Source: Candidatus Saccharimonadota bacterium (GTDB lineage Bacteria; Patescibacteriota; Gracilibacteria; Absconditabacterales; Absconditicoccaceae). Taken from it: a stretch of DNA of 32,000 nt. Below, one piece after another: positions 9,731 through 31,592 of this stretch. The notes beneath the pieces are model-generated. The model was not told where the DNA came from and ran no database searches. It worked only from the letters and a program-made list of their open reading frames with translations. The stretch lies in contig OZ246420.1 in the NCBI GenBank assembly GCA_965231145.1, forward strand, positions 180,001-212,000, in the 5' to 3' direction. Position numbers and translations under genes: made by a program. The stretch's first letter is position 1. Each line of letters begins with the position of its first letter.

Positions 9731-9739
9731 TATACAATG

Positions 9740-9767: not shown

Positions 9768-9777
9768 ATATATGCTG

Positions 9778-9806: not shown

Positions 9807-9832
9807 GACAATGATCAGTAAAATACTATACT
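9805..9832 (+). promoter_or_regulatory. Sigma70-type promoter
   Basis: TTGACA (9805-9810), a 16-nt spacer, then TATACT (9827-9832). Confidence 0.65.
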
Positions 9833-13537: not shown

Positions 13538-13649
13538 TGATTATACCATATATAACTAAAGATAAATTACTTAATTCGTGTAAAACTGAAGACGTAAAAC
13601 CAAAAATAGTTTTGAAATTTTAGTTTTAGGTTTTTAGTTTGAGAGAGTA

Positions 13650-13723
13650 TAGCTTTGGGCGGACTTGAACCGCCGACCTCGTCCTTATGAGAGACACGCT
13701 CTAACCAGCTGAGCTACAAAGCC
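13650..13723 (-). tRNA. tRNA-Met (anticodon CAT, elongator-type; Ile2/lysidine identity not excluded)
   Basis: A 74-nt cloverleaf was folded by hand. The acceptor is GGCTTTG/CAAAGCT (G1-U72 wobble). The D arm is GCTC/GAGC. The anticodon loop is CTCATAA. The T arm is GGCGG-TTCAAGT-CCGCC. It lacks the three G-C pairs of an initiator anticodon stem, and CCA is not encoded. Confidence 0.85.
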
Positions 13724-13729
13724 ATGGTT

Positions 13730-13814
13730 CGGTGAGGGCGGGATTCGAACCCGCGGTACCTTTCGGTACGACTCGTTAGCAGTGAGCTGACTTCGACCAC
13801 TCATCCACCTCACC
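13730..13814 (-). tRNA. tRNA-Ser (anticodon GCT), type II with long variable arm
   Basis: 85 nt. The acceptor is GGTGAGG/CCTCACC. The anticodon loop is CTGCTAA. The variable arm is GTACC-GAAA-GGTAC. The T arm is GCGGG-TTCGAAT-CCCGC. There is an A31-C39 mismatch at the base of the anticodon loop. Confidence 0.85.
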
Positions 13815-13835
13815 ATCTTTTTTTAGACGTAAAAA

Positions 13836-14049: not shown

Positions 14050-14607
14050 ATGAACGAAGTAATAACATGATGACTCGATGTTGGAAATGTTTCCAACAGC
14101 CTCGGAGAGGCGAGTGAACAGGATATGGTAAGAGTATCAGAAAGTATGCAAAAAGCAGCTCAGATTGGCTGACAGATACGCGATGACCAGATAAAAAATA
14201 GTTTTCTTGCTCAGTTTTTGACTTTCCTTTTTCAGTCTATCCAGCACGATGAAATCTGGGCGATGAGTGTAGAGCTTTTTTCAAAGCCATCGGAAAGTCT
14301 TGGTGGGTGAGCGGCACTTTCTCTTCATGAGATGGTGGCTTTGTTTCTTCCATTCTACTCGTATAAGGCGCAAGAGCTAGGTCTCGATCAGACATTCCCA
14401 AATCTTCACTATGCAATTTCTCTTTCCCAGGAGGCATATATGGGCTATGTACATACACTGTATAGTCAATATCCTCTTTATCAAAAACTCGATAGAGACA
14501 CACTCGCGACACTTGTTACCTCGCTTTTACTCTATCATAGTATTGTGACAGTACCAGAGGGGAAGACATTTGATGATGTTCTCAATCCCATCCGTATATC
14601 ACTCTAA
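14050..14607 (+). CDS. Hypothetical protein, 185 aa
   Basis: ATG at 14050 is in frame with ORF 14332..14607. Four TGA codons are read through, including the tandem TGA-TGA at 14068-14073. The stop is TAA. The start is uncertain. Confidence 0.55.
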
Positions 14608-14628: not shown

Positions 14629-15423
14629 ATGGAGATCATCCGCATAACAGGACTTGAAAAAACATTTCATTCGTGGCAGAAGAACACTCCCATCTTACAG
14701 GGAGTCAATTTGTCTGTACAAGCAGGAGAGATCTATGGCTTTTTGGGTGCAAATGGCGTGGGAAAGACAACATTGCTTAAATGCATCTTCCAGTTTATTA
14801 CACATGATGCTGGGTCAATAGAACTTTTTGGTACTCGCGACTATTATCACCAAAAGTACTTTTCTCGCATCGGCTATGCGCCGGAGGTAACTAATTTATA
14901 TGCTTTTCTCACCGGGAGAGAGCTTCTCGCTTATATGGCTAAACTTGCTAACAACTCAAAACTCAAAACCCAAAACTCAAAATCTTATAAGGAGAAATCA
15001 TCGGACTCGAAAATCGAAAATCGAAAATCTAACATCGATTTGTTATTGGGCAAGCTGTGACTGGGTTTCGCTGCAGATCGTTTGGTAAAAACATACTCAA
15101 AAGGTATGAAACAAAGGCTTTCTTTAGCTGCTTCTCTTATCAATGATCCAGAGCTCATTTTTTGGGATGAGCCGATGTCTGGACTTGACCCACTGGGTCG
15201 TATTCTCGTCAAAGATCTCATGAAGGAACTGAAAGCGCAGGGGAAAACTATTTTCTTCAACACACATATCCTCTCGGACGTGCAGGAGATTGCCGACAGA
15301 TTTGCTATCCTTCATAATGGCGTGATCGTCCATGAAGACGCGCCGAGCGCGATTTCTGGATCCCTCGAAACGTTTTTTACTGACACGGTAAGGGGATTGG
15401 ATGAGCATGTAAATATTTATTAA
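14629..15423 (+). CDS. ABC transporter ATP-binding protein (ABC-2/NatA-like), no adjacent permease
   Basis: ORFs 14629..15060 and 15082..15423 share a frame across TGA at 15058-15060. Walker A is GANGVGKTT. The signature is YSKGMKQRL. Walker B is LIFWDEP. The H-loop is NTHIL. A K/S/N-rich insert, NNSKLKTQNSKSYKEKSSDSKIENRKSN, lies between the Q-loop and the signature. The stop is TAA. Confidence 0.9.
14954..14981. repeat. Heptanucleotide array ACTCAAA x4 (one ACCCAAA variant) inside the ABC ATPase CDS
   Basis: Read directly from the sequence: ACTCAAA ACTCAAA ACCCAAA ACTCAAA. Confidence 0.8.
15007..15027. repeat. Heptanucleotide array TCGAAAA x3 inside the ABC ATPase CDS
   Basis: Three perfect 7-nt units, flanked by degenerate copies (TCGGAC upstream, TCTAACA downstream). 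Confidence 0.8.
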
Positions 15424-15430: not shown

Positions 15431-15487
15431 CTTAAAACTAAAAACTAAAATCTAGAAGCTTTCAGGTTTAGGGTTTTAATTTTGAGG
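15431..15487 (+). terminator. Long imperfect hairpin built from heptamer words (terminator-like, no clear U-tract)
   Basis: CTTAAAACTAAAAACTAAAATCT pairs with AGGTTTAGGGTTTTAATTTTGAGG. That is 16 Watson-Crick pairs, 4 G-U pairs and 3 mismatches. The G-U pairs exist only in the + strand RNA. The left arm is flanked by the direct repeat TAGAAGCTT. Confidence 0.4.
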
Positions 15488-15619: not shown

Positions 15620-18600
15620 ATGAGTAACACATTTGAGTTTAAGCTACAGACGCCTAGCGCAAGCAAGATTGATCTTGCAGGAGCAGAGATGGCTCAGTCG
15701 ATAGCAGATCTTAAAGACTCTCTCACAAGCCTGAAGGATCAGGTCATGAATTCGCAGGATGAAACCGAGGCGAAAGATGTTTTCTCGCAGGTAAAAGAGC
15801 ATCTGTATGCAGATGATGCAACTATGACTTTGAGAGTTGGTGATAAGTATATCACGACTGATTCCCCGGCTGAGTATACTCAGCGAAAGGCTCTCATCGA
15901 AGCTGATCTTGAGGCTGCAAACCAAGAAATTTCTGTCTACATGGAAAGTCTTAAGTCTGAGACTGATTTTGTTATGAAGCAAACAAAAAAAGAGGTACAG
16001 GTTGTGCAGGATGACGTTACAGGGAAAAAGCTCACGAAAAAGAAAGTAACAGAAACACAAAAGACCCGTACTACAGAGTTTACTTATGAAGATAACGATG
16101 AAGCTGTTCAGCCAGAGTGAACACAAGAGCAGCAATCACCCGTAAACGAAAATGAAGCGCCAGCAAATAAGGAAACAGTAAAACTTCCTACGCCTGATGT
16201 GTTTTGGCATCAAGATATCCATTTCTCTAATATTAAGAGTATTGCTCAGCTTGATGAAGCTTTTAGAAGAAATCCTGCCTATAGCAATCTACAAGGTGCT
16301 ATGGACAATCAGGATATTGTGAATGCTCTCAGAAACTATCATCAAAATCCAGATAGTGTGAAGGGGGTAAAAATTATTGATGGGTACTATCATATTTCTA
16401 CGCGTAACCCACTTTTTGAGACATCGTGGAATCCTAAGGGGAAGATTTGTATTCCTGTGCAACAGGTAGAAGTAGAGATCTTTCAGCCGAAGGCGTCGCC
16501 TGCGCCAGATAACTATGACTATAATAATAATCCAGACTCATATGATCGTACAAAAAATGTAGATGATCGTATGAAGCCTATAGATCAGGTATATCCTGGT
16601 AGTATGGATAGCTATAAGAATAAGGGAGTTCTCGGTGCGTTCTTTGGTAAGATTGCAGAAAATACAAATCTGAAAGATAAAGATGCAAAATCTATTGCGA
16701 ACCTTTGTAAAATCGCAACAGGTGGAGCGATGCTTTTCTTCGGTATCAGAAGTGTGATAGATCTTTTCAGTGCGTCAAAGCGTAAAAGAGGCCTGACAAC
16801 ACTTGGAGTGATGGCAGGGCTTGAACTTGGTTCACGTATGGCGTTTGGAGAAGGTATCAACAGTATGCTCAATGGAAAAAATCCTAAGGATGCTTGGGAT
16901 GCATTCTGTAAGAAATTTAATTTTGATGCGGTAAGTACCGATAATATCGATAGTAGCACAGTGGATCAAGTTATGGATCCCGCAACAGTGCATGCTATGA
17001 TTCAGGGTATTTCATGGGAAGATCAGAAGCTCTTTACTGTGGAAAACAGTGATGGTAGTGTGACAGTAGATCCTGTAAAATATAAAGAATATATTACAGT
17101 AAGAGCAACTACTGACAATAGTTTTAAAGCTACTCTTGCAAATAGACTGGAAGCATTGAAAGTGCTTATTGATAAGAACGTGCTACAACCATCGTTCAAT
17201 CAGTTCTATATCGCAAATGCATTCAATCCATTTACTGTAGACATATCTAAGAAGGATGAAAATCCTGATAACGAGCTTGCTGGTACAACAGCTATTAGAA
17301 ATACGCTTATTGAGCTTAGAAAAGGATACAAAACAGATGCTGATAAGATGGCAGCATATATAGGTAAACTAAAAAAAGAAAAGAGAGATGTTTCTACCGT
17401 AACAGTAGATGAGCTCAAAGATGCTGGTGTGATCACCGGTGTTCTTGCTAAGGAGGTGCTCGATACAGATCCTATTGATCCGGTACTCCAATCGCTTGTT
17501 GATGAAAATAAACTTACAACAAGAGATGCACAAAGTCTGACTAAGGCTAAGACCCAGCTTACAGAAGAACTCGTGAAGGTTGGCAGTCAAGATGCTGGAA
17601 AGGACATGGAATTTAAGGTGGTAGATGGCGCTATTTATCTTCATAGCCACGGATGGAGTATTGGTATTTCAAAGGTAGGAGATATGGACGACTGGAAAGT
17701 TGGTTCATTTGAACATAATTTCTCTGGTACTTATGAAGCGGTTCGCGTAGCAACGCTTACGAACTTCATCATTACTCACTACAAAGGTACAGTAGACAAG
17801 GGAGTAGAAGGACCGTTTAACTATAATGATAGAAACCTCAATATTCGTCAGCATGGAGCCATGACAAATCTTGGTAATCTCCAATTTGGGAAAGCCATAT
17901 TTGGGACTGCGGTTGTAGATGGAGCTGATGGATTTGCATCATCTCTTTCTAAGATCGGTGGCTCTGCTTTTGAATCGCAAGCAGGAAAGTATGCTGCATG
18001 GTTAAATAGCCTTAAGGGAACAGATGGTAAAACATCTATGTGGTACATGGGTAATGACACAGGAGTGACATGGGAAACTATTGCTCCACTGGCTGTTATC
18101 CCTGCGGTATCGCCAGATGTGGATCCTAATGAGCCAAATGCTACGCCAGATGCTAAAGAAAAAGAAAAGAAACCTTTTGTTTCTGAAGCGGAGGCTCTTG
18201 CAAACATGGAGAAATATAATCTTATGTTCACGCCAGCAGAACACTATGAGTGGATCGAGCCAAATCATGAAACAAATAACTATGCAACAGTTCCATTCCT
18301 TACTGATGTAGAGGCGATGGAAGATATGAACAAATATAACCTCGTGTTTGCTCCTCTCGGAGAAGATGAAACCCGGGCAGACGAAAAGAATAATCCTTCA
18401 ATCCCTGGTGTGGACGTTAAGAAGGCAAACTTTGCAGTAGCTATTAAAGAACAGCCAAATGCCCCAAAATGAAAGCCTAAGCCCAAAAACTTTAAAGTTC
18501 CTTTTGTCTCATTTGATCAGATACAGAAAGACAGAAAAGCAAATCATGTTGGTATCAGACCAAAGGATGGCTTTACGTGGGCTCACGATAAGAAGGCATT

Positions 18601-20221
18601 TGATAACTTCCATGTGATAAAGACAGGAGAAAAGATTGCTCCTCTTACGCTTGAAGATATGAAGAAAGACAGAAAGGCTCATCATGTCATGATTTCACCG
18701 AAGTCAGGTTTTGAGTTTGTGGAGCCAAACAATATGGATAACATGGCAACCAGAGAGCTCAATGCATGGGCGAAGACGAAAGAGTGGACTGCAGATAAGT
18801 GGACAGGATTTAAGGATTCAGCTTCAGATCTCGGTACATCTATTGGTAAGACATTTGATAGAATGGTTGCAGGTGATCTCTTTAAGAAGGAGCCAAGCAA
18901 TACCGTTGTTTACTGGAGAAAACATCTTACATATCTCAAAGATATGCTTTCAGATCTCGAGAGACAGTGAACAGCTATGGATAAATCTGTAGTGACTGCT
19001 ACAGAGATAGGACTTATGAAGGTCCATCTTGAAGAAACGGAAGAGAAACTTGCGAAGATAGAAAATATGTGGGGAGTAGATATTGATCCAGGACTCACTC
19101 CGAAAGATAAAAAATTCGACAGCGGATGGACAAATGCTCAAAAGAAAGAACTTACAACAGCTGAAAAGAAGATTAACTTTGAGCTCAAGTTTAAGGATAA
19201 AAATGACACAGCTCATTTTATTACCTACCAAGATAAGTCAGTTCGTCTTGCTTCATGGGCACAGGAAACACCTATAAGAATCGAAGGTGGTAAGTACTTC
19301 CTCGATAAGTTTATGGTGCCGTTTGACAATGCTGAAGATGTTGTGCGTATGGCTAATCTGACGAACTTCCTCAAGATCCATTTCAAGGATAAGGCGACAA
19401 CAAATGTTGATAATCCATGGGTTATAACAAATGATGGGGACCTTGAGTTTAAGGATCAGACAACATGGGATGCTACGAAGAAGCTTGACTGGAAGTGAAT
19501 GTTCTTCAATACAACAGCAGTCGATGGTGAGGATAATATTTCTTCAACTATCAAACATATCGGAGGATCTGTCTTTGAAGCTCAAAAGGTGAACTATGTG
19601 AAGTATCTTAACAACATGCAAAACGCAAGAAATGAAAATATGTGGCAGCTTAAGGATTCCGCAGGTATGGTTCCTGAAGCTCTCAAGACCCTGAAAGATA
19701 AGTTTGCAGGAAAGATTAATGTCGTTCGTTCGGGAAAACTAGAAACTCCTCAAAAACCAGATGAACTTACAGGAGAAATAAATATTTATGATAAAACTGC
19801 GAACCTTGAGACCAATGGATATCTTTCGCTTATCAGTCATGGTCAAAGAATAGATATTGATGCGAGTCCAGATGGCAAGGGATACAATATTGGATATCTC
19901 AATGGTAAGCAAGCCGATGGTACTCATAAAAAGGACATGTTGCCTATCAAGTTTATGACAGAAGAAGATGCATTGAGGGTGGCAAATCTTGTAAACTTCT
20001 ACAAGAAGTATTACAAGGGGCTTGGTACAAGTGACCAAGCATTCAATATCTCTGCGTACGGTAACGATCTAGAGTTTGCTGAAGACGGCGTGATGGACTG
20101 GATGGATCTTACAGCATTGGATAGTAAGGATGCTCTTGCGTACTCAAAGGACCTCGCTGGTAATAATCTTAATGCATTTGCTGTATGGCTCAATAACACA
20201 TGAGGTTGGGAAACTAAATAG
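15620..20221 (+). CDS. Giant hypothetical protein, 1533 aa, with a triplicated domain of about 135-140 aa
   Basis: Five ORF-track fragments (15593.., 16199.., 18614.., 18977.., 19499..) are all in one frame, separated only by TGA at 16118, 18470, 18968, 19496 and 20201. The first true stop is TAG at 20219-20221. The start is set at ATG 15620. I recognise no family. Confidence 0.8.
17606..18015 (+). repeat. Protein-level repeat 1 of 3 in the 1533-aa protein
   Basis: ...EAVRVATLTNFIITHYKG...TAVVDGADGFASSLSKIGGSAFESQAGKYAAWLNSL. Confidence 0.7.
19214..19618 (+). repeat. Protein-level repeat 2 of 3 (spans TGA at 19496-19498)
   Basis: ...EDVVRMANLTNFLKIHFKD...LDWK-G-MFFNTTAVDGEDNISSTIKHIGGSVFEAQKVNYVKYLNNM. 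Confidence 0.7.
19778..20200 (+). repeat. Protein-level repeat 3 of 3
   Basis: ...EDALRVANLVNFYKKYYKG...DLEFAEDGVMDWMDLTALDSKDALAYSKDLAGNNLNAFAVWLNNT. Confidence 0.65.
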
Positions 20222-20242
20222 ATTTATTGAAACATATAAACT

Positions 20243-23200
20243 ATGGGAGAAAATGACAAATTAGAGTACGATAAAGAAGTAGAAGATCAGGATAAAAGTC
20301 CTGAACTTTCTGCTGATAATAAAAAAACTGAAAATTCAGAGATCAGAGAGCAGAGTGAAACTGAAAATTCAAAGAATAAAGAAGAGGCTGCTGCGAAAGA
20401 AAATACGGAAATTAGTTTGTCAGATCTTCAGAAAAAAATTGAAGTGATTAAAGCTTCTGATGATTATAGTAAAGAAGTCAAAGAAGAAGCTCAGAACATA
20501 GCCAATGAGCTCACTGGAAATCCCAATGCTGATCAAAAGGAACTTGCAGAAAAAGCTGCTAAGATAGCTGTTCTTGAACAAAAAGAGAAGTGATGGTTTC
20601 AGAGAAATAAAAAAGAAATTATAAAGTGGATAAAGGGTATTGCTACCATAATTGGTGGTAGTGTTTTGGCTGGACGAAATAAAATTAAGGATTTCTTCGG
20701 TTTTGGAGATGAAGAGAGTGATGCAGAACCAAAGAAAGAAGAAGAGAAGAAATGAGGAAAAGAGGAAGCTCCTTCTTCGCCTGACAATGAAAATTCAAAC
20801 ACTGATAATCCCGAAACACCGCCGGAGGCGGATGTCGGAGACATTGACGATGCTGCTACGCCACCGGAAGAAAAGAATGATGATGCGGAAAAAGAGCCTG
20901 AGATGAATAAAACTGATGTTAATCGTGAAGTGACAAATAGCCTGAAATCATTTAAGGAGACTGCTCAAGAAATTGATAGCAACTTCAGTATGTTTACGAA
21001 AAATGAGAAAGATATAGAGGAAGATGGTAAGAAGCTCAATGCTGCGTATCAGAAAGTTATGGATGAGCTCACAAGACTCAACCAGCTCTTTCCTGAAGAT
21101 GCAGAGATGCAGGAACTTTATAGGTCGACAATGTATTCGCTCGCTGAGTTTTATTCTGATAGGTCAGATGTGGATAATGATCACCATGAAGATTCTATTA
21201 AGGCTGTACAGCTTCTTACGCCACTCGTCAATAATATTAAAAATGAAAATGGAGAGCCTTCGAAGCTTCCTCCTATGCCGACACAGGATGATCTTATGAA
21301 GTCTATAGCGACAGAAAATCCTACACTTGCTGAGAGCATTGCGATAAAGATACAACAAGGTTTGAGTATGGAGCAGATTCTTGCTGATAAAGATACATTG
21401 AAACAATGGAATGAAGCATATAAAAAACTTTTTGATACGTGGGAAAAGGGATTTGATGGCGCTTTGACTCTCATGTATACGAAATATAAAGAAGGGAAGT
21501 ATCCAGATATTACGCCGATGCAGAAAAAAGCATTTGAGATGCTTAAAGATATCCAAGGAACCAATGATCGATGGGACTGGAAGGATAGAAATGTAAATAT
21601 GGCGACAAATATCGCAGGAAGTGTAACGGCTATTACGGCTGGTATCGCAGTAACTATACTTACTGCTGGTCTTGGAACAGGGGCTGGTGTAGCTATTGCA
21701 TCTGTGGGAGCTGGAGCATTGACCACAACAGTTGGTATGTGGGTAAATGAAAATAAGTTGATGGGAGGATGAGATCTTGCCCTCGATTTTGCTCTCAATG
21801 CTATACCATTTGGTCTTGGTAAAACATTTGCGTATCTGAGAGATGGAGCAAAAGTTGCAACGAAAGCTGCGAAGTTCATCATGGCTTCAAGTTATCTTGC
21901 AGAATGAGCGCTTGATGTAACAATTACGAGCTGATGACAAACACTGAAGACGGGTGAGTCTTTTGGCCAAGCTTTGCAGGACAATCTTGCATGGGCTATT
22001 TTCCCGCTCGTGCTTCATCAGAGTAGCGCAGCGATGAAATATCTTAAGAACTCTCCAAAGCTGCAAGCTATTTTTGCAAGAAAAGATCTTGCAGATGAAA
22101 CATTGAATGACATTAATAAAGCAAAGATACTTGCACAACTTGGTAAGAAACAATTATCGCAAGAAATTTTGGATAAGCTCAATGCTAAGCTTACGAAACT
22201 TAAACGAAGTGAAACGATTAAACTGCTTGATGAAGAAGCGGCGCTTGTGGCAAAGAAAGAAAGTATGATTAAAGATATTAAGAGTTACATCGATGAAAAT
22301 GTTGTCCTTAATAGTAAGGCTAACATAACGCCTATTAAAAATGGTGCGATGGATAATTTCATGAAAGTCGGTGATAAGATGGTTGTAGAGAGTTCTAATG
22401 GTACGAGAAAGCAGATTACGCTTTTGAAGTTCAATGGTAAGAACTCGCTGGTAAGCATCGATGGAGGTCGTCCAGTAAAAGCCAATCTTGCGGGAGGAAA
22501 ACTGCATATTACTGACCCTATTTTCAAAGGTGAAACTATTACAGGTTCGTTTCTGGCGAAACATCCAAACGTAAGTGGAAAAAATATCACTGCTATGGTG
22601 TGAGAACTTGAATCTGTTAAGGTAGATATGCGCAGTCTGAAGTCTTTGGGTCTAAGCTTTAAGGCGTTTGGAATAGAAATGAGAGATCTTTCTGCTGTCT
22701 ATCCTCAGCTCAAGAGAGATATAAAAAATCTTAAGGTTGGTGAAAGCATCGATGATTTCCTTGGCTATAAAGTAACAAGGACCGATAAGGGTTTTGAGGC
22801 GGTAGACAAGAGTTGACACTCTGCGTCTGCAGCAAATAGTGACGTTCTGTTGAACCATATTTTGCCGAGCGCCGAAGCAAATGGAGAGAGAATTCTTGGT
22901 TATAAACTTGCACATTTCTATAGAAATAATCTGACGCCTGAAACTATTCAAGCTATCTTGCAAAAGAATATGTTGGGAAGATGACTTGGGAAGGTGAAGA
23001 AGCTTGTCGGTGGTAAAGGAGCTAGTGCATATGAAGTAAATGTAGATGGCGTAAAATACCAAGTGAAGTTTGATAAGAGTGTGCCGGAAGGTATCGTGTT
23101 TGCAGATGAAGCGGGTAAGGCTATCGCTGCAAATAGTCCTATAGTTCGTCAACTTGAGTCAAAGGTTTTTGTGAAGATGAGCGAGAAGTACAAAGCATTT

Positions 23201-23617
23201 GGTATCCACTGTAAAGATATACAGACTCCGTTAGGAAAACTTATACCAGAGCGTATGAAGCTGAAGATGTTTAAGACGATAGCTGATAAACTTCATAAGC
23301 CTCTTACAGTCATTGAAAATATGACTGTCGGTCAGGTCATTGAATCATTTCAGCAGTTCGCTGATGCGCCAACTTTTGCAAATTTTGTAAGAGCGCTTTC
23401 GGGAGGAGGAGGTCTCAATACGATGCTTTTGACATGAGTTATCATGATCGATGCAACGCAAAATAGACTTGATGAGATTGGAACAGATTATATAAAATAT
23501 GTATTGGGCGGAACGCTTATGCCGCTTGTCGATATTGTACAATCATATGGTGAAAGGAAATTAGAAGAGCATAAAGCGAACAATACTCAATGAGAAAATT
23601 TTAGTACAGAAACATAA
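20243..23617 (+). CDS. Giant hypothetical membrane-anchored protein, 1124 aa
   Basis: Fragments 20243.., 20903.., 21974.., 22628.. and 22994.. share one frame and join through 11 TGA codons, including the tandem TGA-TGA at 21932-21937. The stop is TAA at 23615-23617. The N-terminus is acidic and low-complexity. Hydrophobic segments are WIKGIATIIGGSVLAG and the Gly/Ala-rich NIAGSVTAITAGIAVTILTAGLGTGAGVAIASVGAGALTTTVGMWV. Confidence 0.8.
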
Positions 23618-23628
23618 TTAAAGCTCTG

Positions 23629-24681
23629 ATGGGTGAGATAAAAGATAGATATGAGACAGTCTATGAAAACCAGGATGCTGATACACAGCAGAAACTTTCT
23701 CAGTTGCAGGAAAGTATCAAAAGCCATGTAGAATCGGCACCATTGCAAATGTTAGAAAATAGTGTTATGGGTAAGGATAAGTGAAAGAAGCAGCTTAATA
23801 TAGCAGAGCTTATAAGTGCTGGTTATGGAAATAGAATATCAAGAGATGTGATCATGAGATACCTCACTGGTAGCAAAAATGAAAAGACCACGTTTTTTGG
23901 TAAGGCATGGCAGATGCTTGGTGACAAGTTTGTAGATCAGATCGTTAAACAGGATAACAGTTATGATTCGGTGCTTATAGTCCACGAAAAGATCATTATA
24001 CAAAAATTTCAGGCAGAGCTAAGCACCCTTAAAAGCTCTATAGTTGTTCCTACAGATGCAACATCTAAGCCTAATAATGCTCCAACTTCTGCTCCTGAGC
24101 AGACAAATGAAGGATATGCAAAAGAGTCTCATTATACGGAAGATGAAAAAACGCAGATTAATGAGGTGATATCTTCTGCAAAGAAGTTTGAAGGTGCACA
24201 ATATAAGTATGGTTGAACTAGTAAAAGTGGCATAGACTGTTCAGGCTTATGGTCTATGGCATTTAAAGAACAATATAAAGACGAATGACAAAATTTTGGT
24301 CGTTTAACTGCTGCGCTCTTTGATGCGAAAGCGCCTGATATTGCATCTAAGGATGTCGAGAGAGGAGACTGGATGTTTTGGGAAGATCCGAATGGAATCA
24401 AGAAAGGATGAAATAATGAAAAAGGAGAAAAGATTTATCACATTGAGATGGCACTTTGAAAACCCTTTGAAAAGGATGGAAAATGGTATGTAAAAACATA
24501 TGGTTCATCTAGTGATGAAAATATGACTGATGCAAATGGTAATCGTTTGAATAATGGGAAAAGTGGTGTGGGATATAGAATAAGAGAGATCAAAGATAAT
24601 CACCACTTTGCAAAGCCGCCGTATTATGCAAAACTTGTGGCGATGAATGATAATAATGATGTAAAGAAAAACGCAGCATAA
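23629..24681 (+). CDS. NlpC/P60-family peptidoglycan endopeptidase, 350 aa
   Basis: ATG at 23629 is in frame with ORF 23848..24216. Five TGA codons are read through. The C-terminal domain is YKYG-G-TSKSGIDCSGLWSMAF ... GDWMFWED ... IYHIEMAL. It carries the catalytic Cys and His, and the TGA at 24214-24216 supplies the conserved second Gly of the YxxGG motif. The stop is TAA at 24679-24681. Confidence 0.85.
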
Positions 24682-24705
24682 TATATTTAGTCTTTAGTGT
24701 GTACG

Positions 24706-27700
24706 ATGAGCATTGATCCAATTGAGACGCTCCATAAGGTAGTGGATAAGACAAAAGAGGATAAGAAATATGACGAGAAGATTGTCTTGCAGGAGACGAA
24801 TCAGAAGTTGTTGAATCTCAAAGAAGATGTCTCATATGCGACAGTAGTTTTAGAGCAACTAAAGAAGACTAATTGGGTTGATGAGCAAAAGTTTCAAGCT
24901 CTTGAGGCGAAGCTTCGTAATGACGATACGAAACAAGAGGCTATTCAAGAGATAGCACGTATCATTGAAGATATCAATGCAAGATATGAAAACTTGCATG
25001 CAGATGAAAAAGAGAAAGTAAGAAAGATGACTGAAGCTCTCCATGAGACTAATAAGTCTATCTCTGCACTAAAAAAAGAGGTCATGGAAAATCCAAATTA
25101 TGAAGCGATAGAGAAGGAACTTGTGGATGAAGCAATGAAGAAACTGGATGAGCATCGATATACGAGATGGCTCAAGGAACCATATAAGAAATATATTCAC
25201 GAACAGATAGAAGAGATGAAGTCGTGAAAAAAAACAGAAGAAAAAAAGTGATGGAAGAAGTTTGTAGATTGATTGAGCAAGTGGTTTTTTGGACTTGTAG
25301 GAGCTATGTTTATCGGAAAAAGTATAACTGATCTGGTTGCTGATAAGCTTAAGGTTGCTAAAGATAAGATAAAGGAAGGAGGAAAGAAAATTGTCGATAA
25401 AGCGAAAGAGAAGATACAAGATATTAAAGACAAAGGAAAAGAAGTCGTGCCAACGACGTCAAGAACTCCTGAGGAACTCAAGGAAGATGAGGCAAAGGCG
25501 AAGCGTTATATTAAAGAATTCACTAAGAAGTATGCTCATAAAGAGTTAACTGATGAACAATTGGAAAGGATTTCAAAGAAAATGAATTTGCCTGAAAAAT
25601 TAAGAGAAGGTACAAGTCAGTGGCGTGAGATCATAAAGGATAATCAGGGTAATTATTTACGTGCAACAGTACAGACTGCCATGCTTCCTGGTACGATAGG
25701 ATGGGAACTTATGGAGGCGTTGCAGGAAGAAGGTATTATAGATATGAAGGAAATAGGTCTTAATATCGTATGAAATACTGTTGAATATGGCTTTAAATGA
25801 TTTGAATTGTTTGGCGCTGGTCTTGCAACGATCTGTGGCAAGATGGATCTCAAAGAACTCAATGGACATATCGCACACTTATATGAGAAATCTCCAACTG
25901 CCGCGAAGCAGATACTTTTCACGCTGATCTATAGAAGTATGGACGGACCACTTATGAAGATGGTTCTCAATACTGGTGCATTTATGGCAAAAGCAGTTAT
26001 CTGGCCGCTCTTCGAAGCGAAAGGAGATCTATGACTCGTGAAAAACATGACTCAGGATGCTTTGAAGTGAAATATGAATACGGCAATTCAGGATATGAAG
26101 CAAACAAAAGAGCTTTTAAAAAAGTGTAATGTGTCTGATCCATTTCTCAGTGAACTTATGACGGAAATAGAGAAGGCTGCAACACAAGCAGAGCTTTATA
26201 ATAATATTGTCGTAGAAGCACAGTGAGTTGCTGATAGTGCGAATTATATGAGTGAACTGAAGAAAAAGTTTCGTGCAGGAAGCAAGGAGGCTAGTTTTCT
26301 TACGGTGTATGAAAATTCTCTTAAGAAAGCTACCAAGAATGTTGTTATAAATAAGGCAAGATTCCTTGATAATATATGAGCTCAATGGTCAAAAGATACG
26401 AAAATCATGGAAACAACCCTCAGGTCATTAAATGCAAAATGGTGAATTGAATTTAAAAACTGGGGAGCAAAGATGTTCCTTGGTGAAAGCTCTGTTCGTC
26501 ATCTGATGATTAATTTTGCGAATAATATCGAAGCACAAGGAAAAGTAGCTCATGAGATGCTTGCAAATAGAAATCTTTTCGATCAGATATCCCATAAGAT
26601 GTACCTCAAGAAGGTTCGTGCGATGGGTGAAATTATGCATGGAAATGAGCTGAAAGATAAAGCAGTTTGGAAGTTCAATACTGTCGAGGAGCTTTCTGAT
26701 TTTACGGAAAATGCGAAACTCCTTGCAAGAAAGGCGCCGTCAACGCTGAAATTTCTCCTTGGAAAGTCGCCGATCTTTATTGTTGGAGGACTCGCTATGG
26801 GTGAGGGTGATACTATAAGTGAAAAGATGCATGGACTCTATGAAGGCATAATGGGTCTCGTGCCTATTGTTGGGCCACTTCTTCTTCTCGATGACGCCCT
26901 ATGGGCATGAGAACGTACTAATTTATGACAAGCAGCCGTTGGTGGTGTACTTTTAGGTGTGGATGTTGTACATATCATTAAAGCATTTAAATGAGCGGAG
27001 ACAACGACGAAACTTATCCATATGTTTACCCAGCCGGTCGTGGACATGATCGAGATCGGAAAGTTTCTGAGAAATTCAGGAAAAAATAGTATCAAGATGG
27101 TTCTCGATGGTGCAAAGCTTATTCGTGAAGGAAAGACTATTGGTATGCGGGAAAAACTCCTTGCAACGCTCAAGGGTACTCCAAAGAAGAAGTGGGCGAT
27201 CATGGCTGCTGTTGCTGCATTTGGGGGTCGGGCTATAGCAGAAATGATGCCTGATGGTATCGACAAAGAAGCAGAAGTATTATTTACTAAATATAAAGAC
27301 GATCCAGCAGGGCTTGATAGAGCACTTGCCGAGAGCTGGCCAACGCTCGATCAGGATACGAAAAATGAATGCCTGAAGTATGCACTTATTGCTAAGCTTG
27401 GTATCAGTCCGGAACATGCCGATGGGCTTATTGTGGAATATAGAGAATGAGCTTATCATGTCAGCCTGCCGATCATGATTCAGAAAGAATATGGAAACGC
27501 GATGCTTGCATCGCTGAAGGATAGTATCGCCAGGGTTGAGCCTGATGCCAAGATTGAAATGAACGTGAGAGGAGTGGTTGCCTACAACTTTAGGAAACAA
27601 CTCGAGGAGAAGTTAAAAGCTCAAGGTGAGAAGCCAGAAAACATCGCGTGAATCATAGATAAACAGTTAGAAGCTATGGGGTATAATCCTAATATAGGAA

Positions 27701-27714
27701 AACAAACCACTTAA
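24706..27714 (+). CDS. Polytopic membrane protein, 1002 aa, with N-terminal coiled coil (ConG/VirB6-like role is inference only)
   Basis: Fragments 24697.., 25273.., 25807.., 26473.. and 27022.. share one frame and join through about 15 TGA codons. The stop is TAA at 27712-27714. There are at least 6-7 hydrophobic segments, for example WFFGLVGAMFIG, FELFGAGLATICG, SPIFIVGGLAMG, IMGLVPIVGPLLLL, AAVGGVLLGVDVV and WAIMAAVAAFGG. Confidence 0.8.
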
Positions 27715-27818: not shown

Positions 27819-27842
27819 AAGAGTCCATTTGGGCTCTTTTTT
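27819..27842 (+). terminator. Rho-independent terminator
   Basis: AAGAGTCC, loop ATTT, GGGCTCTT, followed by TTTTT. The T-run runs into the next -35 element. Confidence 0.75.
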
Positions 27843-27869
27843 GATGTTTGGAATGAGCGCGGATATACT
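27841..27869 (+). promoter_or_regulatory. Sigma70-type promoter
   Basis: TTGATG (27841-27846), a 17-nt spacer, then TATACT (27864-27869). Confidence 0.6.
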
Positions 27870-27968
27870 AGTAAAAAGAGTATTTTATACGTGTATGTAT
27901 GAACAATGGCAAGAACTGCTCCAAATCAGGCCTTACAGTGAATAGAAAGGTCTAAGGAACTCCTGGAT

Positions 27969-30900
27969 ATGAATAACTCTGCTGTCTCTCTTGCGAAAGA
28001 CCAGACTTTCTCATTGCTTATGGCAGGCAATGGTAGTTTTGTCATGAGAGATCATGTTGCTACAGTGCTTCATACCTATGCAACAAGAAGAAGAGCAAAT
28101 ATTGCAGATTTTGGATATACATGGAAGAAACTGACACAGCAGTTGAGTATTAAGGATCAAATTGCCTTCGTTGCGGGAATAACACACGCTCATGATATGG
28201 GAACTACTGCCGCTGCGTCTAAAAATACTATCGATGACGCCGCCCTTACGCAGTCTCTTAATATGCTTATAGAAACTCTTCGTAAAGATCTTATCGAAAA
28301 AGAAAATTTCACTGAGTCTTGGATTATTCGCCATGCAGCATTCAATAACTTTGAAGCGAAGCTTTCTGTTCCAGAACAAAAAACGCTTTCTGCTATTTCA
28401 GAGAAAATGAAAAAACTTGCTGAAACAAGTGATCTACAGCAACTTGCTGACGCCATGCATTTTCAGAAAGAGTCTGATGCGCAGCAGATCGTAAAGATCG
28501 AAGAAGCTATGGCTATCTGTGCAGAACAGGGAATCGATGTCGATGCAAAACTAATCGAGCAATTTGATGTGCTTAAGCAGAAAATTAAACCCATTAGGGA
28601 TCTTGATAAGCACTATAAGCATCTTATGAACACGCTTAATATGGTTCATAGAAATGCAAAGACAGGAATCACTGCTATGGTTACACCTTCGCAGAAGGCT
28701 AAATTGATTAAAGTGTTAGAAGACCTTGGTACAAATGAACAAGCATATATTTTTGATGCAATCGGACAGTCAGAAAATCCTAAGATGCTTGATAGTGAGC
28801 TGCTTACTCTTAAGAAAGATAGTAGAAAATTTGCTGAAGTACTTCGTTCAAACAATATGACAGCAAGAGAGTTTGAAACTCACTTCCTTTCGTATTTCAC
28901 ATTTGTAAATGCTGAAAAAGCAAGAACTGACTTTAATCAGCAGAAAGTAGACACATTTGGTACAAGAATTAAGGCATATGAGACTGATGTGAACGCATGG
29001 AGAGGGCTTGCAAGAGAGAAGATATTTGCGCTTCACGCTAACATGCGTCTTTCCGGAGGAATCATGACTTTTGGTTCAGAAGATGATTATAATATTGCAA
29101 ATAGTTATTTTGAAAAGTTCAAAGATATTTTCTTCGCAGATGAAAGCGATGCAATAGGACCAGATGGAGGACACTACAGACAGATGAGAGATGTTGTTGC
29201 CGCTATTATTAGAAGAAGAATCCCTGCTCTTGGTGCTCCTGGTCAGAGAAGATTTGGAGTTGCTCTTCGTAGAATTATCGCAAGAATGAATGACCCTAGG
29301 CTTTTGAAAGGCTTGGAGCGTTGGTATAAACAGGCTGATGACGCTGAGCTTTTGTCCATGATTATCATGGCTCAAAACGAGTCGACAAATATGATGTTTT
29401 ATAACGACAAAAATCCTTTTGTGAGTACAGAAGGAAGAATGCACAGACTCGCAAAAAATGTAAGTAATGCGGAACTCTGAAGAGAAGCAGTAAGAGATGT
29501 GATCTCAAAGCCTGCGAATACTTTCCTTCGTCTCAGTGAAAGCGCATTGAAAGGAGGTCTCAAGGGTGCAAACAAGGTCTTTTCAAAAACAGGTAGATTT
29601 GCAACATGGGCAACAAGCGGTGTTTTGGGCCCTCTCAATAGAGCAATCGAAGGTAAAAAGGGGAAATGGTATATGATTCCTGGATATGCAGCGTGGCTTG
29701 TGACTCGTCCTATAGAAGAAATTGCAAAACAAGGAAATAGAATTCTTAACTATACTGATGCTGAGGGTAACAAAGCTATCGACAATGCTCAGGCAAACAC
29801 TGTTGCTATGTTGAGAAAGTGATTCAACGATCAGAACATTAACAATGTCTACGAAGGCTTTACACATGCTTTTGAAGGCGTTGCTAGTTTCCTTGGTAAG
29901 ACAACATCTCGCATTGGTCAGGCTGGATACGATAAGATAGATACTAAAAAGAAGAGAGATGTTCTAGGTGCGTTTTTTGAAGCTGCTCAGAAAGAAGAAA
30001 GTCTTACCGAACTTATGCAATCATCAGACCTTGCAAATATGCTCAATCTGAAGGAGAGATGACCTTATATCTTCGATGAAGATGGAAGAGTAACCACGGT
30101 AAATAAGGTTTCAACGAAGAAAGAATATGCAGAAGATGCAGCAGGCGCTCAAGAATATATGAAAGATCAGAGTAAGAAGATGCTTGAAGATATAGATGCT
30201 TCATTTAAGGAATATGCAAGTAGAATAGAAGCCAGCTATGAAGCTAATCAAGATGCGCTTTCTGGCATGACTCCTGCAGATGCAGACTATAACAAAGTGC
30301 AGAAGGAGATCGCGAATATTGCTGTTCGTCAACAGACGCTTGCTGGTAAGCAGACTATTACCAATGAGATGCTCACTGCTATGCAGGCATTTCTACGTAA
30401 TGCAGATGCAAATGCGTTTAATACTGAAATAAAGCGTATTCATGCCGCCATAAGAAAAGAAAAGGAAAAAAGCGATAAGGCTATTTCTGATGCTCAAAAA
30501 ATTATTAAGGCACAAGAAACAATAAAAGCAACATCGAAAAAATCTCTTGATGAAGTAAATGCTAAGCTTGCAAAGCTCAATCCTACCGATAAGGGCTATG
30601 CTACATTAACTGCTGAAAGACTTACTGCGGAGACAGAGAGAAATAATACAAGAGCAGTTTTGAGAAATGCTGAAGATGCGATCCTAACAAGTGTTTCAGC
30701 AAAACAAAAACTTGAAAGAAAGAGAGATAGCAAAGAACAAGAAGTGAAAGAGTTAAAGAAGAAGGCGGAAAGAAAGATAGAGTACAATGATGTTATGGAT
30801 AAGTTAAGTGAGATTGATAAGGATTTGGCTAAGAAAAGAGCAGAACTTGCTAATGTGAGATCTGCAGAAAGAAATGACAATGCAGGATATAATAACAATA

Positions 30901-31592
30901 AAAATAAGGGTAAAAATCAAACTTCTCCAGAAGTTGCTACTCTTACCAAGGCTATCAATGATCTCGAAGCGCAAGAGAGAAGACTACAAAATATCGCATA
31001 CAATGGACTAGCTATCGCAGATGCAGATTATGAAACAGATCTCAAGGCTGCGCAAATAGAGCTCACTGATTTTGAAGATCAAATCACTGACAATGAAACT
31101 CAGCATAAGCAACTCATTAAAGATAAAGATGCTGCTCAGGATGCCTACGACAAAGCTGTTCAGGAACTTGCGAAGATAGATGCTCAGCTTACATCGAAGA
31201 TGTCAGGAGACAAGGGCTATGCAGAACTTATTGCAGATAGAGCTATCCATGAAGCTGCAATTTCTACTGCAGATGCTACTATCTCTACTCAGCAAAAAAT
31301 TATAGACAAAGAAGCTCAGGCTTGAGTAGTTCATTCTGACTTCTATAGAATGTCTACCAGAATGGAAGGATTTGCAAAGAATGCAAAACACAATGTAGAT
31401 ACCAATCTTATTGCAGATCCAGCAACATATATGAAAGAAATCCAAAAACTTCTCGCTGATTTCAATGGTTACATTATTAGTAAGAAGGCAGCTTGATCAT
31501 CAACAGATAAGATTGATCGTATTAAAGCGATTGTTAGCAGAACAGATATAGATGAACAGGTAAAGGCAGATCTTATAGCCAATCTGAAATAA
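27969..31592 (+). CDS. Giant hypothetical coiled-coil protein, 1207 aa (alternative in-frame start ATG 27906)
   Basis: Fragments 27969.., 29499.. and 30159.. share one frame and join through TGA at 29478, 29820, 30060, 31323 and 31494. The stop is TAA at 31590-31592. The C-terminal half is K/E/A/Q-rich with heptad character and repeated DKGYA-x-L and ADADY motifs. Confidence 0.8.

Follow-up and report, generated by a model that had tools for sequence, protein, structure and literature searches.

The 32,000-nucleotide stretch of DNA analysed here (the window) carries a peptidoglycan hydrolase gene set among genes for giant proteins, raising the question of what such an arrangement might serve. 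The region resembles a fast-evolving, hitherto undescribed module that would breach cell walls, a function that we infer from sequence comparison; it may encode the envelope-spanning machine that the preliminary description had proposed.

The genes themselves are secure. Open reading frame calls under translation table 25, in which TGA encodes glycine, bear out four tightly packed genes on the + strand (gA, gB, gC, and gD; 1533, 1124, 350, and 1002 amino acids) with intergenic gaps of 21, 11, and 24 nt. These frames contain 5, 11, 5, and 15 in-frame TGA codons, respectively, and under table 11 the stretch at 15620-27714 falls into more than 15 pieces. Because stop codons make up about 4.5% per codon position, a chance origin of open reading frames of at least 1000 codons is estimated to be effectively impossible. 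In alignments of orthologues from the window, L001, and L006, TGA stands opposite glycine (87) or another TGA (24) in 111 of 178 comparisons (62%) and opposite tryptophan once, and database copies translated with code 4 carry tryptophan precisely at the positions of glycines conserved in other homologues. As code 25 has only two stop codons, long antisense frames also arise as by-products, such as that at 20261-22153 on the - strand. The base composition of the cluster is that of the rest of the window. The cluster genes are real and under selection, and the cluster is chromosomal and restricted to the Absconditabacteria (SR1), a lineage of tiny cells that depend on a host.

The boundaries had been described as terminators on both sides of a four-gene unit. 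Downstream, a clean hairpin with a T-run follows gD and is the best terminator-like site within 18 kb, and the terminator scan found no internal terminator between the genes from gA to gD; the supposed upstream counterpart (15431-15487) is weak, at -12.9 kcal/mol and z = -1.5, with 17 of 200 shuffles folding equally well. The four genes stand, but the unit comprises five, since gE, past the terminator, is kept beside gD in L001 and L006 (Table 1).

Table 1. Features of the cluster and its upstream neighbours, in window coordinates.
Feature	Position	Strand	Basis or remarks
u12, 185-aa protein; upstream neighbour of gA-type genes	14050..14607	+	Synteny
u13, ABC-2/DrrA-type ATP-binding protein	14629..15423	+	Pfam ABC_tran 5.6e-27
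gA, 1533-aa giant	15620..20221	+	ORF, table 25; KEDQ-rich N-terminus
R-domain copy 1, gA aa 646-809	17555..18046	+	Internal repeats; HMM 1.2e-52
R-domain copy 2, gA aa 1183-1343	19166..19648	+	HMM 1.2e-65
R-domain copy 3, gA aa 1386-1533	19775..20218	+	HMM 2.9e-36
gB, 1124-aa giant	20243..23617	+	ORF, table 25; acidic KE-rich N-terminus, conserved body
gB hydrophobic hairpin, aa 457-501	21611..21745	+	Kyte-Doolittle peak 1.83
gC, 350 aa	23629-24681	+	ORF, table 25; helical N-terminal module and NlpC/P60 head
gC helical N-terminal module (handle), about aa 1-150	23629..24078	+	Comparison with L023_14126
gC NlpC/P60 catalytic head, about aa 180-340	24166..24648	+	PF00877
gD, 1002-aa giant	24706..27714	+	ORF, table 25; KE-rich helical N-terminal region, large conserved body
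gD Gly/Pro-rich hydrophobic region, aa 681-761	26746..26988	+	62-79% column identity; best-conserved part of gD
Intrinsic-terminator-like hairpin and T-run, 3' of gD	27819..27848 (hairpin 27819-27838)	+	8-bp stem, 4 GC pairs, then TTTTGATGTT
gE, 1228-aa fifth giant, past terminator	27906..31592	+	ORF, table 25

The sole match to a known family in the cluster, as had been noted, is that of gC to NLPC_P60 (PF00877; 1.1e-7; 32.2 bits, cut-off 23), and the nearest PDB sequences of gC are generic NlpC/P60 proteins. Cys204 (codon 24238-24240) and His271 (codon 24439-24441), read directly from the DNA, are invariant across nine gC homologues. The protein starts with MGEIKDRYETVYENQDAD and has no Sec signal peptide; u2, the pilin-module protein of the same window, has a classical one. 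The N-terminal module, or handle, is helical in an AF2 model of a homologue with 67% identity, parts of which reach pLDDT 70-86. Handles of three types are found in relatives. Type 1, a handle conserved at 56-61% identity, bears NlpC/P60 not only in the window but also in L001 and L006, and Peptidase_M23 (5.9e-29) in L023, whose protein L023_14126 is 61% identical to gC in the handle. Type 2 handles, which match one another at 2e-30 to 4e-41, bear NlpC/P60 in oral SR1 MAGs as well as in L003; in L014 and L020 the heads are YkuD_2 (1.3e-35) and a domain of unknown type. Type 3 bears NlpC/P60 in L002, L004, and L005 and M23 in L021. These alignments show that the same handle, at the same cluster position, carries different wall-active heads in relatives, with head swapping observed three times, once per handle type.

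The giants are ORFans with respect to the characterised families tested, with no match in Pfam, NCBIfam, PHROGs, PADLOC, PDB sequences, or phage and plasmid records; homologues among phage tail, tape-measure, and adhesin families, which would have undercut the preliminary description, were looked for and not found. Neither gA nor gE has a family or PDB match, and gB and gD have no family, PDB, phage, or plasmid match. The giants show no resemblance to VirB6, VirB8, or adhesins; a PF07996 match, weak, below threshold, and confined to 2 of 13 members, is noise. Among 5.8 billion database proteins, gB has a single relative and gD none. Orthologues in L001, L006, and L023 are 48%, 48%, and 58% identical to gB and 53%, 57%, and 65% identical to gD, respectively, and full-length homologues of gD at 22% identity occur in L003 and L020 (blastp 3e-36). 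For gA, the orthologues at L001, L006, and L023 are 40-52% identical over the C-terminal portion and about 25% over the N-terminal one, and remoter relatives occur in L002, L016, L017, and L021. In gE, a conserved N-terminal region of about 750 amino acids is followed by a variable coiled-coil-like tail, and orthologues lie 3' of gD in L001 (46%) and L006 (36%); the Kyte-Doolittle scan found no hydrophobic segment in gE, which could be cytoplasmic.

The cluster proteins had been described as lacking N-terminal signal peptides, which inspection upheld, and as having internal transmembrane segments; such segments are present but only moderately hydrophobic, with Kyte-Doolittle 19-residue peaks of 1.4-1.8, compared with 2.0-3.0 in bona fide membrane proteins of the window. 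In the same scan the segments hold their position across orthologues (peaks 1.3-2.1), and families A, B, D, X, Y, and Z each have at least one moderately hydrophobic Gly/Ala/Pro-rich segment at conserved positions. gA has a weakly hydrophobic Gly/Ala-rich stretch at about aa 340-420. A short hydrophobic helix in gB (aa 126-144) is accompanied by a Gly/Ala/Thr-rich hairpin, whose position is likewise hydrophobic in the L006 and L023 orthologues, and one in gD (aa 194-212) by the Gly/Pro-rich region, in which peaks reach 1.7-1.8 and P689, G694, G714, P720, G723, P724, G735, G746, and D753 are invariant down to the L003 homologue, at 24% identity. Two structure models were obtained, both of poor quality.

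A repeat of about 160 amino acids, the R-domain, is common to gA and the Y giants and is rare, with 30 matches at E<1e-3 among 1.84 billion protein representatives. The second of the three copies in gA is the most conserved part of the protein (56-60% column identity), and the first lies within an insertion of about 350 amino acids (about aa 650-1000) that is absent from gA orthologues and has a conservation near 0. In L002, L009, L014, and L021, the R-domain forms the C-terminus of the giant immediately 5' of the hydrolase gene.

Conservation of gene order, one of the original expectations, was found as colinear orthologues in four other SR1-type genomes (L001, L006, and L023 among them). Beyond the closest clade, synteny is mosaic rather than fixed, with the family combinations A-B-C-D-E, A-X-Y-C-Z, X-Y-C, and X-D-C. 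The embedding of a hydrolase among giants does recur in SR1, at no fewer than 15 loci. The hydrolase gene lies directly 3' of a giant at every recovered locus, in a sample biased towards this arrangement because most relatives (L001-L015 and L020) were recovered via the hydrolase; L021 and L023, recovered via the R-domain, are independent cases. L003, L020, and L014, whose flanks share 88-98% amino-acid identity, carry either an X-D or an unrelated X'-Y giant pair along with different sets of hydrolase genes, which shows that the adjoining giants are replaced as cassettes between close strains. The dN/dS ratios of X (0.20) and D (0.12), compared with 0.04-0.08 for RNase J, UvrB, and Wzy_C, show that the giants evolve faster than their housekeeping neighbours, yet under purifying selection. 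The giants beside the hydrolase belong to a handful of families found only in SR1.

Upstream of the cluster, u12, which has no family match, has orthologues directly 5' of gA-like giants in L001, L006, L016, L017, L021, and L023, with the ABC ATPase gene intervening or absent, and u13 is syntenic in L001, L006, L017, L021, and L023. The best NCBIfam match of u13 is drrA (1.3e-47); its identification as FtsE was rejected (89 bits against a cut-off of 265). Both are conserved upstream neighbours of uncertain membership in the module, and because L016 and L017 have gA-like genes but neither B-E nor a hydrolase close by, gA may belong functionally with u12 and u13 rather than with gB-gE. The wider flanks (EF-G, S16, ABC ATPase, and ATP synthase genes) are stable across genomes. 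Some 10-14 kb upstream, the window encodes a VirB4-like ATPase (TraG P-loop 4.8e-26) together with a protein of the T4SS_pilin module. Their proximity, which had been offered as a functional hint, carries little weight, because gatC-like, EF-G, methyltransferase, peroxiredoxin, S16, tRNA, and ABC ATPase genes intervene, and because none of the related clusters situated elsewhere in genomes has a T4SS gene within 10 kb; the linkage is not conserved.

We tentatively favour, at a probability of roughly 45%, an envelope module specific to the lineage that uses exchangeable heads to cleave peptidoglycan, probably that of a host wall. An exchangeable enzyme would be paired with giant, mostly helical partner proteins, onto which the handle would dock gC; the giants may sit in, or insert into, a membrane via their hydrophobic hairpins, and giants and gC together would bring the hydrolase to the cell wall at a contact zone. 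Export would need a non-Sec route, and no export apparatus is encoded in or beside the cluster. The target would most likely be the wall of a host or prey, as the lineage is epibiotic or predatory and the variability of the locus resembles that of an arms race. SR1 relatives, cultured or observed, live as epibiotic predators and have giant envelope proteins as well as hydrolases that are predicted to be secreted (PMC8080830).

The same components might instead act on the cell's own wall, the giants being own-envelope scaffolds or regulators that control an autolysin during growth, division, or the insertion of surface structures; we consider this unlikely, if a serious contender. gC is laid out like the FtsEX-controlled CwlO, RipC, PcsB, and EnvC, in which a helical N-terminal region precedes a C-terminal NlpC/P60 or other hydrolase domain, and weakly matches the NCBIfam RipC family (1.1e-5). 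An ABC ATPase gene, u13, is conserved a few kb upstream, just 5' of gA-type genes, and the purifying selection on the giants would also fit. NlpC/P60, M23, and YkuD domains are typical of ordinary housekeeping enzymes of wall remodelling, which counts against a host-directed role as well. However, u13 is of the DrrA/ABC-2 type, no FtsX-like four-helix permease is encoded nearby, and no ABC ATPase gene adjoins the X-Y-C and X-D-C clusters found at other genomic sites. CwlO, RipC, and PcsB have signal peptides, in contrast to gC. A housekeeping autolysin would not be expected to swap Cys peptidase, metallopeptidase, and L,D-transpeptidase-fold chemistry, together with whole partners, between strains with 95-98% identity in the flanks; such swapping of heads and partners, apparent in the SR1 cluster, is not known for FtsEX division systems.

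An improbable alternative is that the cluster encodes dispersed parts or substrates of a monoderm-type (MPF_FATA-like) CPR T4SS, with gC as a VirB1-like hydrolase and the giants as diverged channel or adhesin components or effectors. Signal-less proteins with moderately hydrophobic segments, such as those of the cluster, are typical substrates of specialised secretion. CPR T4SSs are of the monoderm type, and in Gracilibacteria-type genomes their components are reported to be dispersed, with VirB1-like hydrolases (CD419/TrsG-type) mostly away from virB4 (10.1101/2025.01.22.634366); the window does encode the VirB4-like ATPase and the pilin-module protein. As in the Gram-positive conjugative hydrolases (CwlT of ICEBs1, Tn916 Orf14/CD419, PrgK, and TcpG), an NlpC/P60-type gene lies directly beside very large proteins, and gC weakly matches Tn916-like hydrolase structures (9ubf 7e-5, 4hpe 2e-4, 4fdy 2e-5), although no better than it matches LytE, MepS, or the diffocin hub-hydrolase. 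The large neighbours of those hydrolases are VirB6-like, whereas none of the giants has a T4SS family match in Pfam or NCBIfam or is polytopic like VirB6, ConG, or TcpH; gC has no N-terminal anchor, muramidase, or SLT domain, the cluster has no adjacent VirB4, VirB6, or VirB8 gene, and gB and gD have no tblastn match in 72,556 plasmids. Still less probable is that no joint machine exists, the giants being independent, fast-evolving surface or cytoskeletal proteins, of a kind common in SR1 genomes, that just happen to lie in the same variable genomic island as wall hydrolases. The wealth of giant envelope proteins in SR1 genomes (PMC8080830), the mosaic combination of families, the gA-like genes that stand apart from the others, and the position of gE past a terminator would all fit; the tight same-strand packing with gaps of 11-24 nt, the giant directly 5' of the hydrolase gene even at the two independently found loci, and the R-domain giant that adjoins a hydrolase across deep divergence argue otherwise. 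A remnant or domesticated phage-tail module, with tape-measure-like giants and gC as a tail-associated lysin, is largely refuted: long helical proteins with Gly-rich hydrophobic segments beside a signal-less NlpC/P60 protein do recall such a pair, and the best matches of gC include tail PHROGs (phrog_400, 3.5e-5) and the diffocin hub-hydrolase 8v3w_H (3.9e-7), but the giants have no PHROG match, tblastn against 50,697 phage genomes found nothing, the IMG/VR matches are generic and confined to the NlpC/P60 domain, no capsid, portal, terminase, sheath, tube, or baseplate gene lies nearby, and both the stable flanks and the native base composition speak against it.

For the host-directed module that we favour, partial parallels exist among other known systems. 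The giants of Vampirococcus lugosii and the Omnitrophota are likewise very large, lineage-specific proteins of predatory or epibiotic small-celled lineages associated with wall degradation (PMC8080830; 10.1101/2023.11.21.568195). They differ in bearing recognisable interaction or enzymatic domains (WD40, TPR, PKD, and glycosyl transferases), of which the SR1 giants have none, and in that the Omnitrophota genes implicated in wall degradation are preceded by a T2SS/T4P-like secretion system (10.1101/2023.11.21.568195); in the SR1 cluster, moreover, a small protein distinct from the giants is the enzyme. Translocators and pore-formers (T3SS SipB/IpaB, colicin-type pore domains, and chlamydial Inc proteins) resemble the giants in composition and layout only: they too lack a signal peptide and combine long coiled-coil or helical regions with a single moderately hydrophobic Gly/Ala-rich hairpin of about 45-80 residues; the sole sequence match to this group, that of the coiled-coil region of gE to SipB (3tul_A, E=0.13), is not significant. 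Peptidoglycan-targeting polymorphic antibacterial effectors (for instance the T6SS Tae NlpC/P60-like amidases, Tlde1 with its L,D-transpeptidase fold, T7SS LXG toxins, and X-Tfe of the Xanthomonas T4SS) differ in that the gC handle has no LXG, PAAR, MIX, Rhs, or XVIPCD match, in that no T6SS, T7SS, or immunity gene is recognised here, and in that the partners of gC are giant ORFans rather than a known secretion apparatus. They are like the SR1 cluster in that a signal-less protein combines a conserved N-terminal module with interchangeable C-terminal wall-active heads (NlpC/P60, M23, and YkuD fold in SR1), and in clustering in a variable locus whose genes differ between close strains.

Under the standard code, the region at 15.6-27.7 kb is a patchwork of short ORFs; under translation table 25, in which TGA encodes glycine, the same stretch resolves into four plus-strand genes, gA to gD, separated by 21, 11, and 24 nt, and the gene lengths and gaps given in the preliminary description are reproduced. 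The recoding is supported by alignments of window genes with their orthologues, in which TGA lies opposite a glycine codon or another TGA in 111 of 178 comparisons and opposite tryptophan in one, and by code-4 database entries, which carry tryptophan at invariant glycine sites such as those in GIDCSGLW. The idea of a four-gene unit stands for gA to gD and leaves out gE, a fifth same-strand giant. The terminator proposed downstream of gD is the top-scoring terminator-like site in 18 kb, and the hairpin proposed as the upstream boundary (15431-15487) folds no better than shuffled sequence. The Shine-Dalgarno motif is absent from every gene in the window. The GC and GC3 of the cluster match those of the remaining window, on which grounds recent horizontal acquisition was rejected. 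Because code 25 leaves just two stop codons, antisense ORFs of 539-720 aa open opposite EF-G, gA, and gB; they were rejected as genes, the plus strand being backed by conservation and by the TGA/Gly evidence.

Positions of features in the window and in related loci (L numbers), with R-domain copies in residues of gA
Feature	Position	Strand	Description
u1	4-933		Wzy_C-like, beside T4SS-like gene set 1042-5284
u2	1042-2103	-	signal peptide, several hydrophobic helices, C-terminal T4SS_pilin (PF18895, 4.4e-7)
u3	2166-3158	-	polytopic membrane protein, no family
u4	3230-5284	-	VirB4-like ATPase, TraG P-loop (4.8e-26)
u5	5941-7038	+	365 aa
EF-G	7625-9730	+	
Antisense ORF	7649-9811	-	faces EF-G
Small membrane protein	12512-12922	-	136 aa, two strongly hydrophobic helices, between S16 and peroxiredoxin gene
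tRNA-Met (CAT), tRNA-Ser (GCT)	13649-13815	-	gene-poor stretch upstream of u12
gA	15620-20221	+	1533 aa, 5 in-frame TGA; table 25 ORF
gA insertion	17567-18619		aa ~650-1000
Antisense ORF	18002-19621	-	faces gA
gB	20243-23617	+	1124 aa, 11 in-frame TGA; table 25 ORF
Antisense ORF	20261-22153	-	faces gB
gC	23629-24681	+	350 aa, 5 in-frame TGA; table 25 ORF
gD	24706-27714	+	1002 aa, 15 in-frame TGA; table 25 ORF
Terminator	27819-27838 + T-run		3' of gD
gE	27906-31592	+	1228 aa; 3' of gD
Partial ORF	31620-32000		window end
R-domain copies in gA	aa 646-809, 1183-1343, 1386-1533		internal repeats and HMM
u1 homologues	L003 10986-12422; L014 10539-11978; L020 15489-16925; L017 5751-7004		
Genes 3' of gE	L001 19643-21747; L006 18207-20542		370/438 aa (30% identical) and 303/317 aa (52% identical)

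The key finding concerns the product of gC, the small hydrolase gene, which is built as a handle with an exchangeable head. The protein consists of a helical N-terminal module of ~150 aa, the handle, whose helicity is taken from AF2 modelling of a homologue with 67% identity (pLDDT 70-86 in parts), and an NlpC/P60 domain, the catalytic head. The earlier assignment to the NlpC/P60 hydrolases is borne out by a match to PF00877 above the cut-off (32.2 bits against 23; E 1.1e-7; residues 189-258, profile positions 1-62 of 105) and by the conserved catalytic residues C204 (GIDCSGLW) and H271 (KIYHIEM), which are invariant in nine homologues and whose codons were checked in the DNA. As regards a third polar catalytic residue and a papain-like fold, the second half of the domain departs from the Pfam profile, and the AF2 pLDDT in this domain is 41-67; the gC-family model has an overall pLDDT of 55, and a Foldseek search with it against the PDB was empty at E<=0.001, a result that is uninformative. 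Pfam detected no other domain and no glycosidase in gC, and a hydropathy scan shows a hydrophilic N-terminus free of hydrophobic peaks.

In L023, the closest relative, the gC position is occupied by a handle 56-61% identical to that of the window and a Peptidase_M23 head (5.9e-29). A second handle type, found in L003, L014, L020, and oral MAGs of SR1 (Absconditabacteria) with mutual matches of 2e-30 to 4e-41, carries NlpC/P60, YkuD_2 (1.3e-35), or a domain without an assigned family. Cys and His residues can be seen by eye in this last domain, and one copy (L014_8926) has no match among PDB sequences. The third type (L002, L004, L005, and L021) carries either NlpC/P60 or M23. Profile comparison detected no kinship of the handles to the giants or among the three types.

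Database relatives of the cluster are few, with one for gB (among 5.8 billion proteins), none for gD, and seven for gC. This ORFan status is partly due to public gene calls, which fragment or mistranslate code-25 genes and so harm homology searches: public records of gC homologues (P0002, P0003, P0005-P0008) are fragmented under code 11 or carry tryptophan at TGA sites under code 4, and much of the scarcity is an artefact of gene calling. Table 25 translation of contigs from relatives revealed A-B-C-D(-E) clusters in colinear order in L001 (Logan DRR438495), L006 (Patescibacteria bacterium Gw_Eff_bin_18), and L023 (Logan ERR7015365), together with the window's neighbourhood of EF-G, peroxiredoxin, small membrane protein, S16, the 185-aa protein u12, and ABC ATPase; synteny in related genomes, on which the preliminary description had staked its reading, is therefore present. 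Further relatives are labelled Candidatus Absconditabacterales and candidate division SR1, and on the sequences compared the cluster is real, conserved, and confined to a narrow lineage. Two more conserved genes of no assigned function lie 3' of gE in L001 and L006, and the partial ORF at the window end has no detectable kinship to them.

The cluster proteins diverge faster than the flanking proteins. Between the window and L023, the flanks are 70-93% identical, as against 52% for gA, 58% for gB, 65% for gD, and 56-61% for the gC handle; between the window and L001, EF-G is 95% identical and gA to gE 25-53%. In a closer pair, L003 and L020, two giants have dN/dS values of 0.20 and 0.12, against a range of 0.04-0.08 in RNase J, UvrB, and Wzy_C, which indicates purifying selection on the giants, more permissive by a factor of 2-5 than that on the housekeeping genes.

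The relatives comprise about 20 loci, most of them recovered via gC, and their giants fall into families A, B, D, E, X, Y, and Z, as defined by BLAST clustering and hhalign. With C as the hydrolase position, the order A-B-C-D-E is shared by the window, L001, L006, and L023, and X-Y-C is found in the oral SR1 MAGs; L003 has X-D-C, L020 has X-D-YkuD-[handle::unknown]-NlpC, and L014 has X'-Y-[handle::YkuD]-YkuD-[handle::unknown]-NlpC. The flanks of these last three loci are 88-98% identical, yet the giant set and the hydrolase genes differ. The stretch between RNase J and Wzy_C/UvrB is a hypervariable island in these three close SR1 genomes, where giants X-D stand against X'-Y, to which they are unrelated, and the hydrolase genes vary in number and in whether they are fused; the L003 hydrolase has the appearance of the L020 handle gene joined to the separate NlpC/P60 gene of that locus. 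The Y giants lie directly 5' of the hydrolase gene and have an R-domain (a repeat domain of ~160 aa) at their end. In L016 and L017, gA-like genes lie 3' of u12, with or without the ABC ATPase and with B-E missing, so gA may be a semi-independent unit.

The first R-domain copy in gA sits within a ~350-aa insertion missing from orthologues. This insertion is window-specific, as the orthologues in L001 and L006 lack it, and by eye it contains four short repeats, '(K/V)PF(V/L)S..(A/M)..M.KYNL.F.P' and 'DRKA(N/H)HV.I.PK.GF'. When 1.84 billion representative proteins were searched by HMMER, using a profile built from the window alone, the R-domain was recovered in only 30 of them at E<1e-3; a structural model from the window-only alignment reached a pLDDT of 39.5, too low to use. 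The proteins gB and gD share a layout of KEDQ-rich N-terminal region, short hydrophobic helix, charged linker, and large conserved body, with no detectable homology to each other. Both contain Gly/Ala/Pro-rich hydrophobic segments (gB 457-501, gD 681-761), the latter being the most conserved part of gD even in a 24%-identical homologue, and such segments hold their position among orthologues in all giant families but E. Topology and coiled coils were assessed by composition and hydropathy scan alone, and on this basis the internal transmembrane segments proposed earlier are present as hydrophobic segments, but with moderate Kyte-Doolittle (19-residue) peaks of 1.3-2.1, compared with 2.0-3.0 for the true membrane proteins of the window. 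The reported lack of an obvious signal peptide in the giants is upheld and extends to all five cluster proteins; a classical one is present in the pilin-module protein u2 of the same window. Cassette exchange of the giants, conserved weakly hydrophobic hairpins, and a rare common R-domain are thus seen across the loci.

The ORFan character of the giants persists across all databases searched, with no confident homology to ordinary characterised families (phage tail, tape-measure, or adhesin). Scans of gA, gB, gD, and gE against Pfam, NCBIfam, PHROGs, and PADLOC gave nothing above noise, as did the same scans of six giants from related loci and of 20 R-domain proteins, save for one likely false positive among the latter; profile or single-sequence searches of the four giants against PDB sequences gave no significant match. 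Profile-profile comparison found kinship solely between A and A2 (through the R-domain) and between X and L002_1011, and none of B, D, E, Y, and Z to each other or to the hydrolase handles.

A selected, lineage-specific cluster, with a signal-less wall hydrolase whose swappable heads sit on a conserved handle, could be explained in several ways. The reading preferred here, at a probability of about 45%, is that the exchangeable wall-cleaving heads are aimed at a host wall: the handle would dock on the giants, the giants would associate with the membrane, and the target would be the wall of the host. It is preferred because near-identical strains differ by exchange of both catalytic chemistry and partners, Sec signals are missing, and epibiotic predation is documented among SR1 relatives (PMC8080830). 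Remodelling of the cell's own wall is rather unlikely. A more specific version of the host-directed reading, equally doubtful, is a hitherto undescribed contact-dependent prey-wall-breaching apparatus of Absconditabacteria, in which Sec-independent giants with hairpins of moderate hydrophobicity (A, B, D, X, and Y) would leave the predator, enter the prey envelope, and bear via the handle the swappable NlpC/P60, M23, or YkuD heads, cassette exchange reflecting an arms race with hosts. Mere co-location of giants and hydrolase is highly unlikely: L021 and L023 were recovered via the R-domain alone, and there too the hydrolase adjoins the giants, which partly answers the ascertainment bias of a search via gC. 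The least probable explanation, by far, is a phage-tail remnant, in which a tape-measure protein would accompany a tail lysin; gA, gB, gD, and gE have no PHROG match, tblastn of gB and gD against 50,697 phage records found none, IMG/VR returned generic NlpC/P60-domain matches and nothing else, and no phage structural or packaging genes lie beside the cluster, whose flanks are housekeeping genes stable across genomes.

The cluster proteins could also be parts or substrates of a T4SS, which is improbable. CPR T4SSs are reported to resemble those of monoderms, to lack a relaxase, and to be scattered in Gracilibacteria-type genomes (10.1101/2025.01.22.634366). In a Saccharibacterium, the T4SS is essential for epibiotic growth. 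The proximity of the VirB4 and pilin genes, which had been read as a link, counts for little, as VirB4 lies 10 kb from the cluster with housekeeping genes in between, and no T4SS genes occur within 10 kb of the homologous clusters in L003, L009, L014, and L020. The giants gave nothing above noise against VirB6/PrgH/ConG, VirB8/PrgL, and the adhesin PrgB in Pfam and NCBIfam, and tblastn of gB and gD against 72,556 plasmid records found no match; PF07996 (VirB5-like) was below cut-off in gD and one relative's handle (2 of 13 members) and was dismissed as helical noise. A functional T4SS link, for example with cluster proteins as substrates, is possible but unsupported.

Several neighbouring genes deserve mention. 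In a comparison with FtsEX-hydrolase division systems, the ABC-2/DrrA-type ATPase u13 was rejected as FtsE (89 bits against a cut-off of 265; best match drrA), and no four-helix, FtsX-like permease lies between 14050 and 32000. The 136-aa membrane protein is 93% identical in L023, and its L021 orthologue has a weak precomputed Pfam T4SS_pilin match, with none for the window copy at E<0.01. Apart from the two tRNAs, Rfam matches nothing in the window. Both u5 and EF-G have no in-frame TGA, against 2-15 in their neighbours; u5 has no family match, and by eye its N- and C-terminal segments are alike ('...P(E/N).(L/C).W(L/I)...G.(L/I)Y(I/M)A..Q.P'). Homologues of u1 (27-39% identity) adjoin the giant/hydrolase clusters of other genomes, and the window u1 adjoins T4SS genes instead; this adjacency may be an envelope-polysaccharide link or a coincidence.

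We know of no account of the means by which CPR/Patescibacteria epibionts or predators open the host envelope, and to our knowledge little has been learned of the code-25 lineages (SR1 and Gracilibacteria) past gene lists. The locus offers a concrete candidate, namely a small enzyme of recognisable activity with a dedicated handle and defined giant partners, which differ among strains as host-range determinants do. Several protein families with no annotation at all have been hidden in public data, along with the R-domain and the hydrolase handle as new modules; public calls fragment or mistranslate code-25 genes. If host specificity or killing is the function, the cluster would represent a novel type of interbacterial attack system and would serve as a marker for predicting SR1 hosts; if own-wall remodelling is the function instead, it would remain unusual as an autolysin system that diversifies rapidly.

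Among known systems, a monoderm (MPF_FATA-type) VirB1-like hydrolase combines a glycosidase domain with a membrane anchor or signal peptide at its N-terminus, whereas gC has none of these. As for polymorphic toxins, no Pfam family indicative of a trafficking domain matches the handles consistently, no secretion genes lie inside the cluster, and, as to an adjacent immunity gene, the 24-nt gap between gC and gD holds no small conserved ORF. The polymorphic-toxin-like feature that is present is the combination of three handle types, each with at least two different heads.
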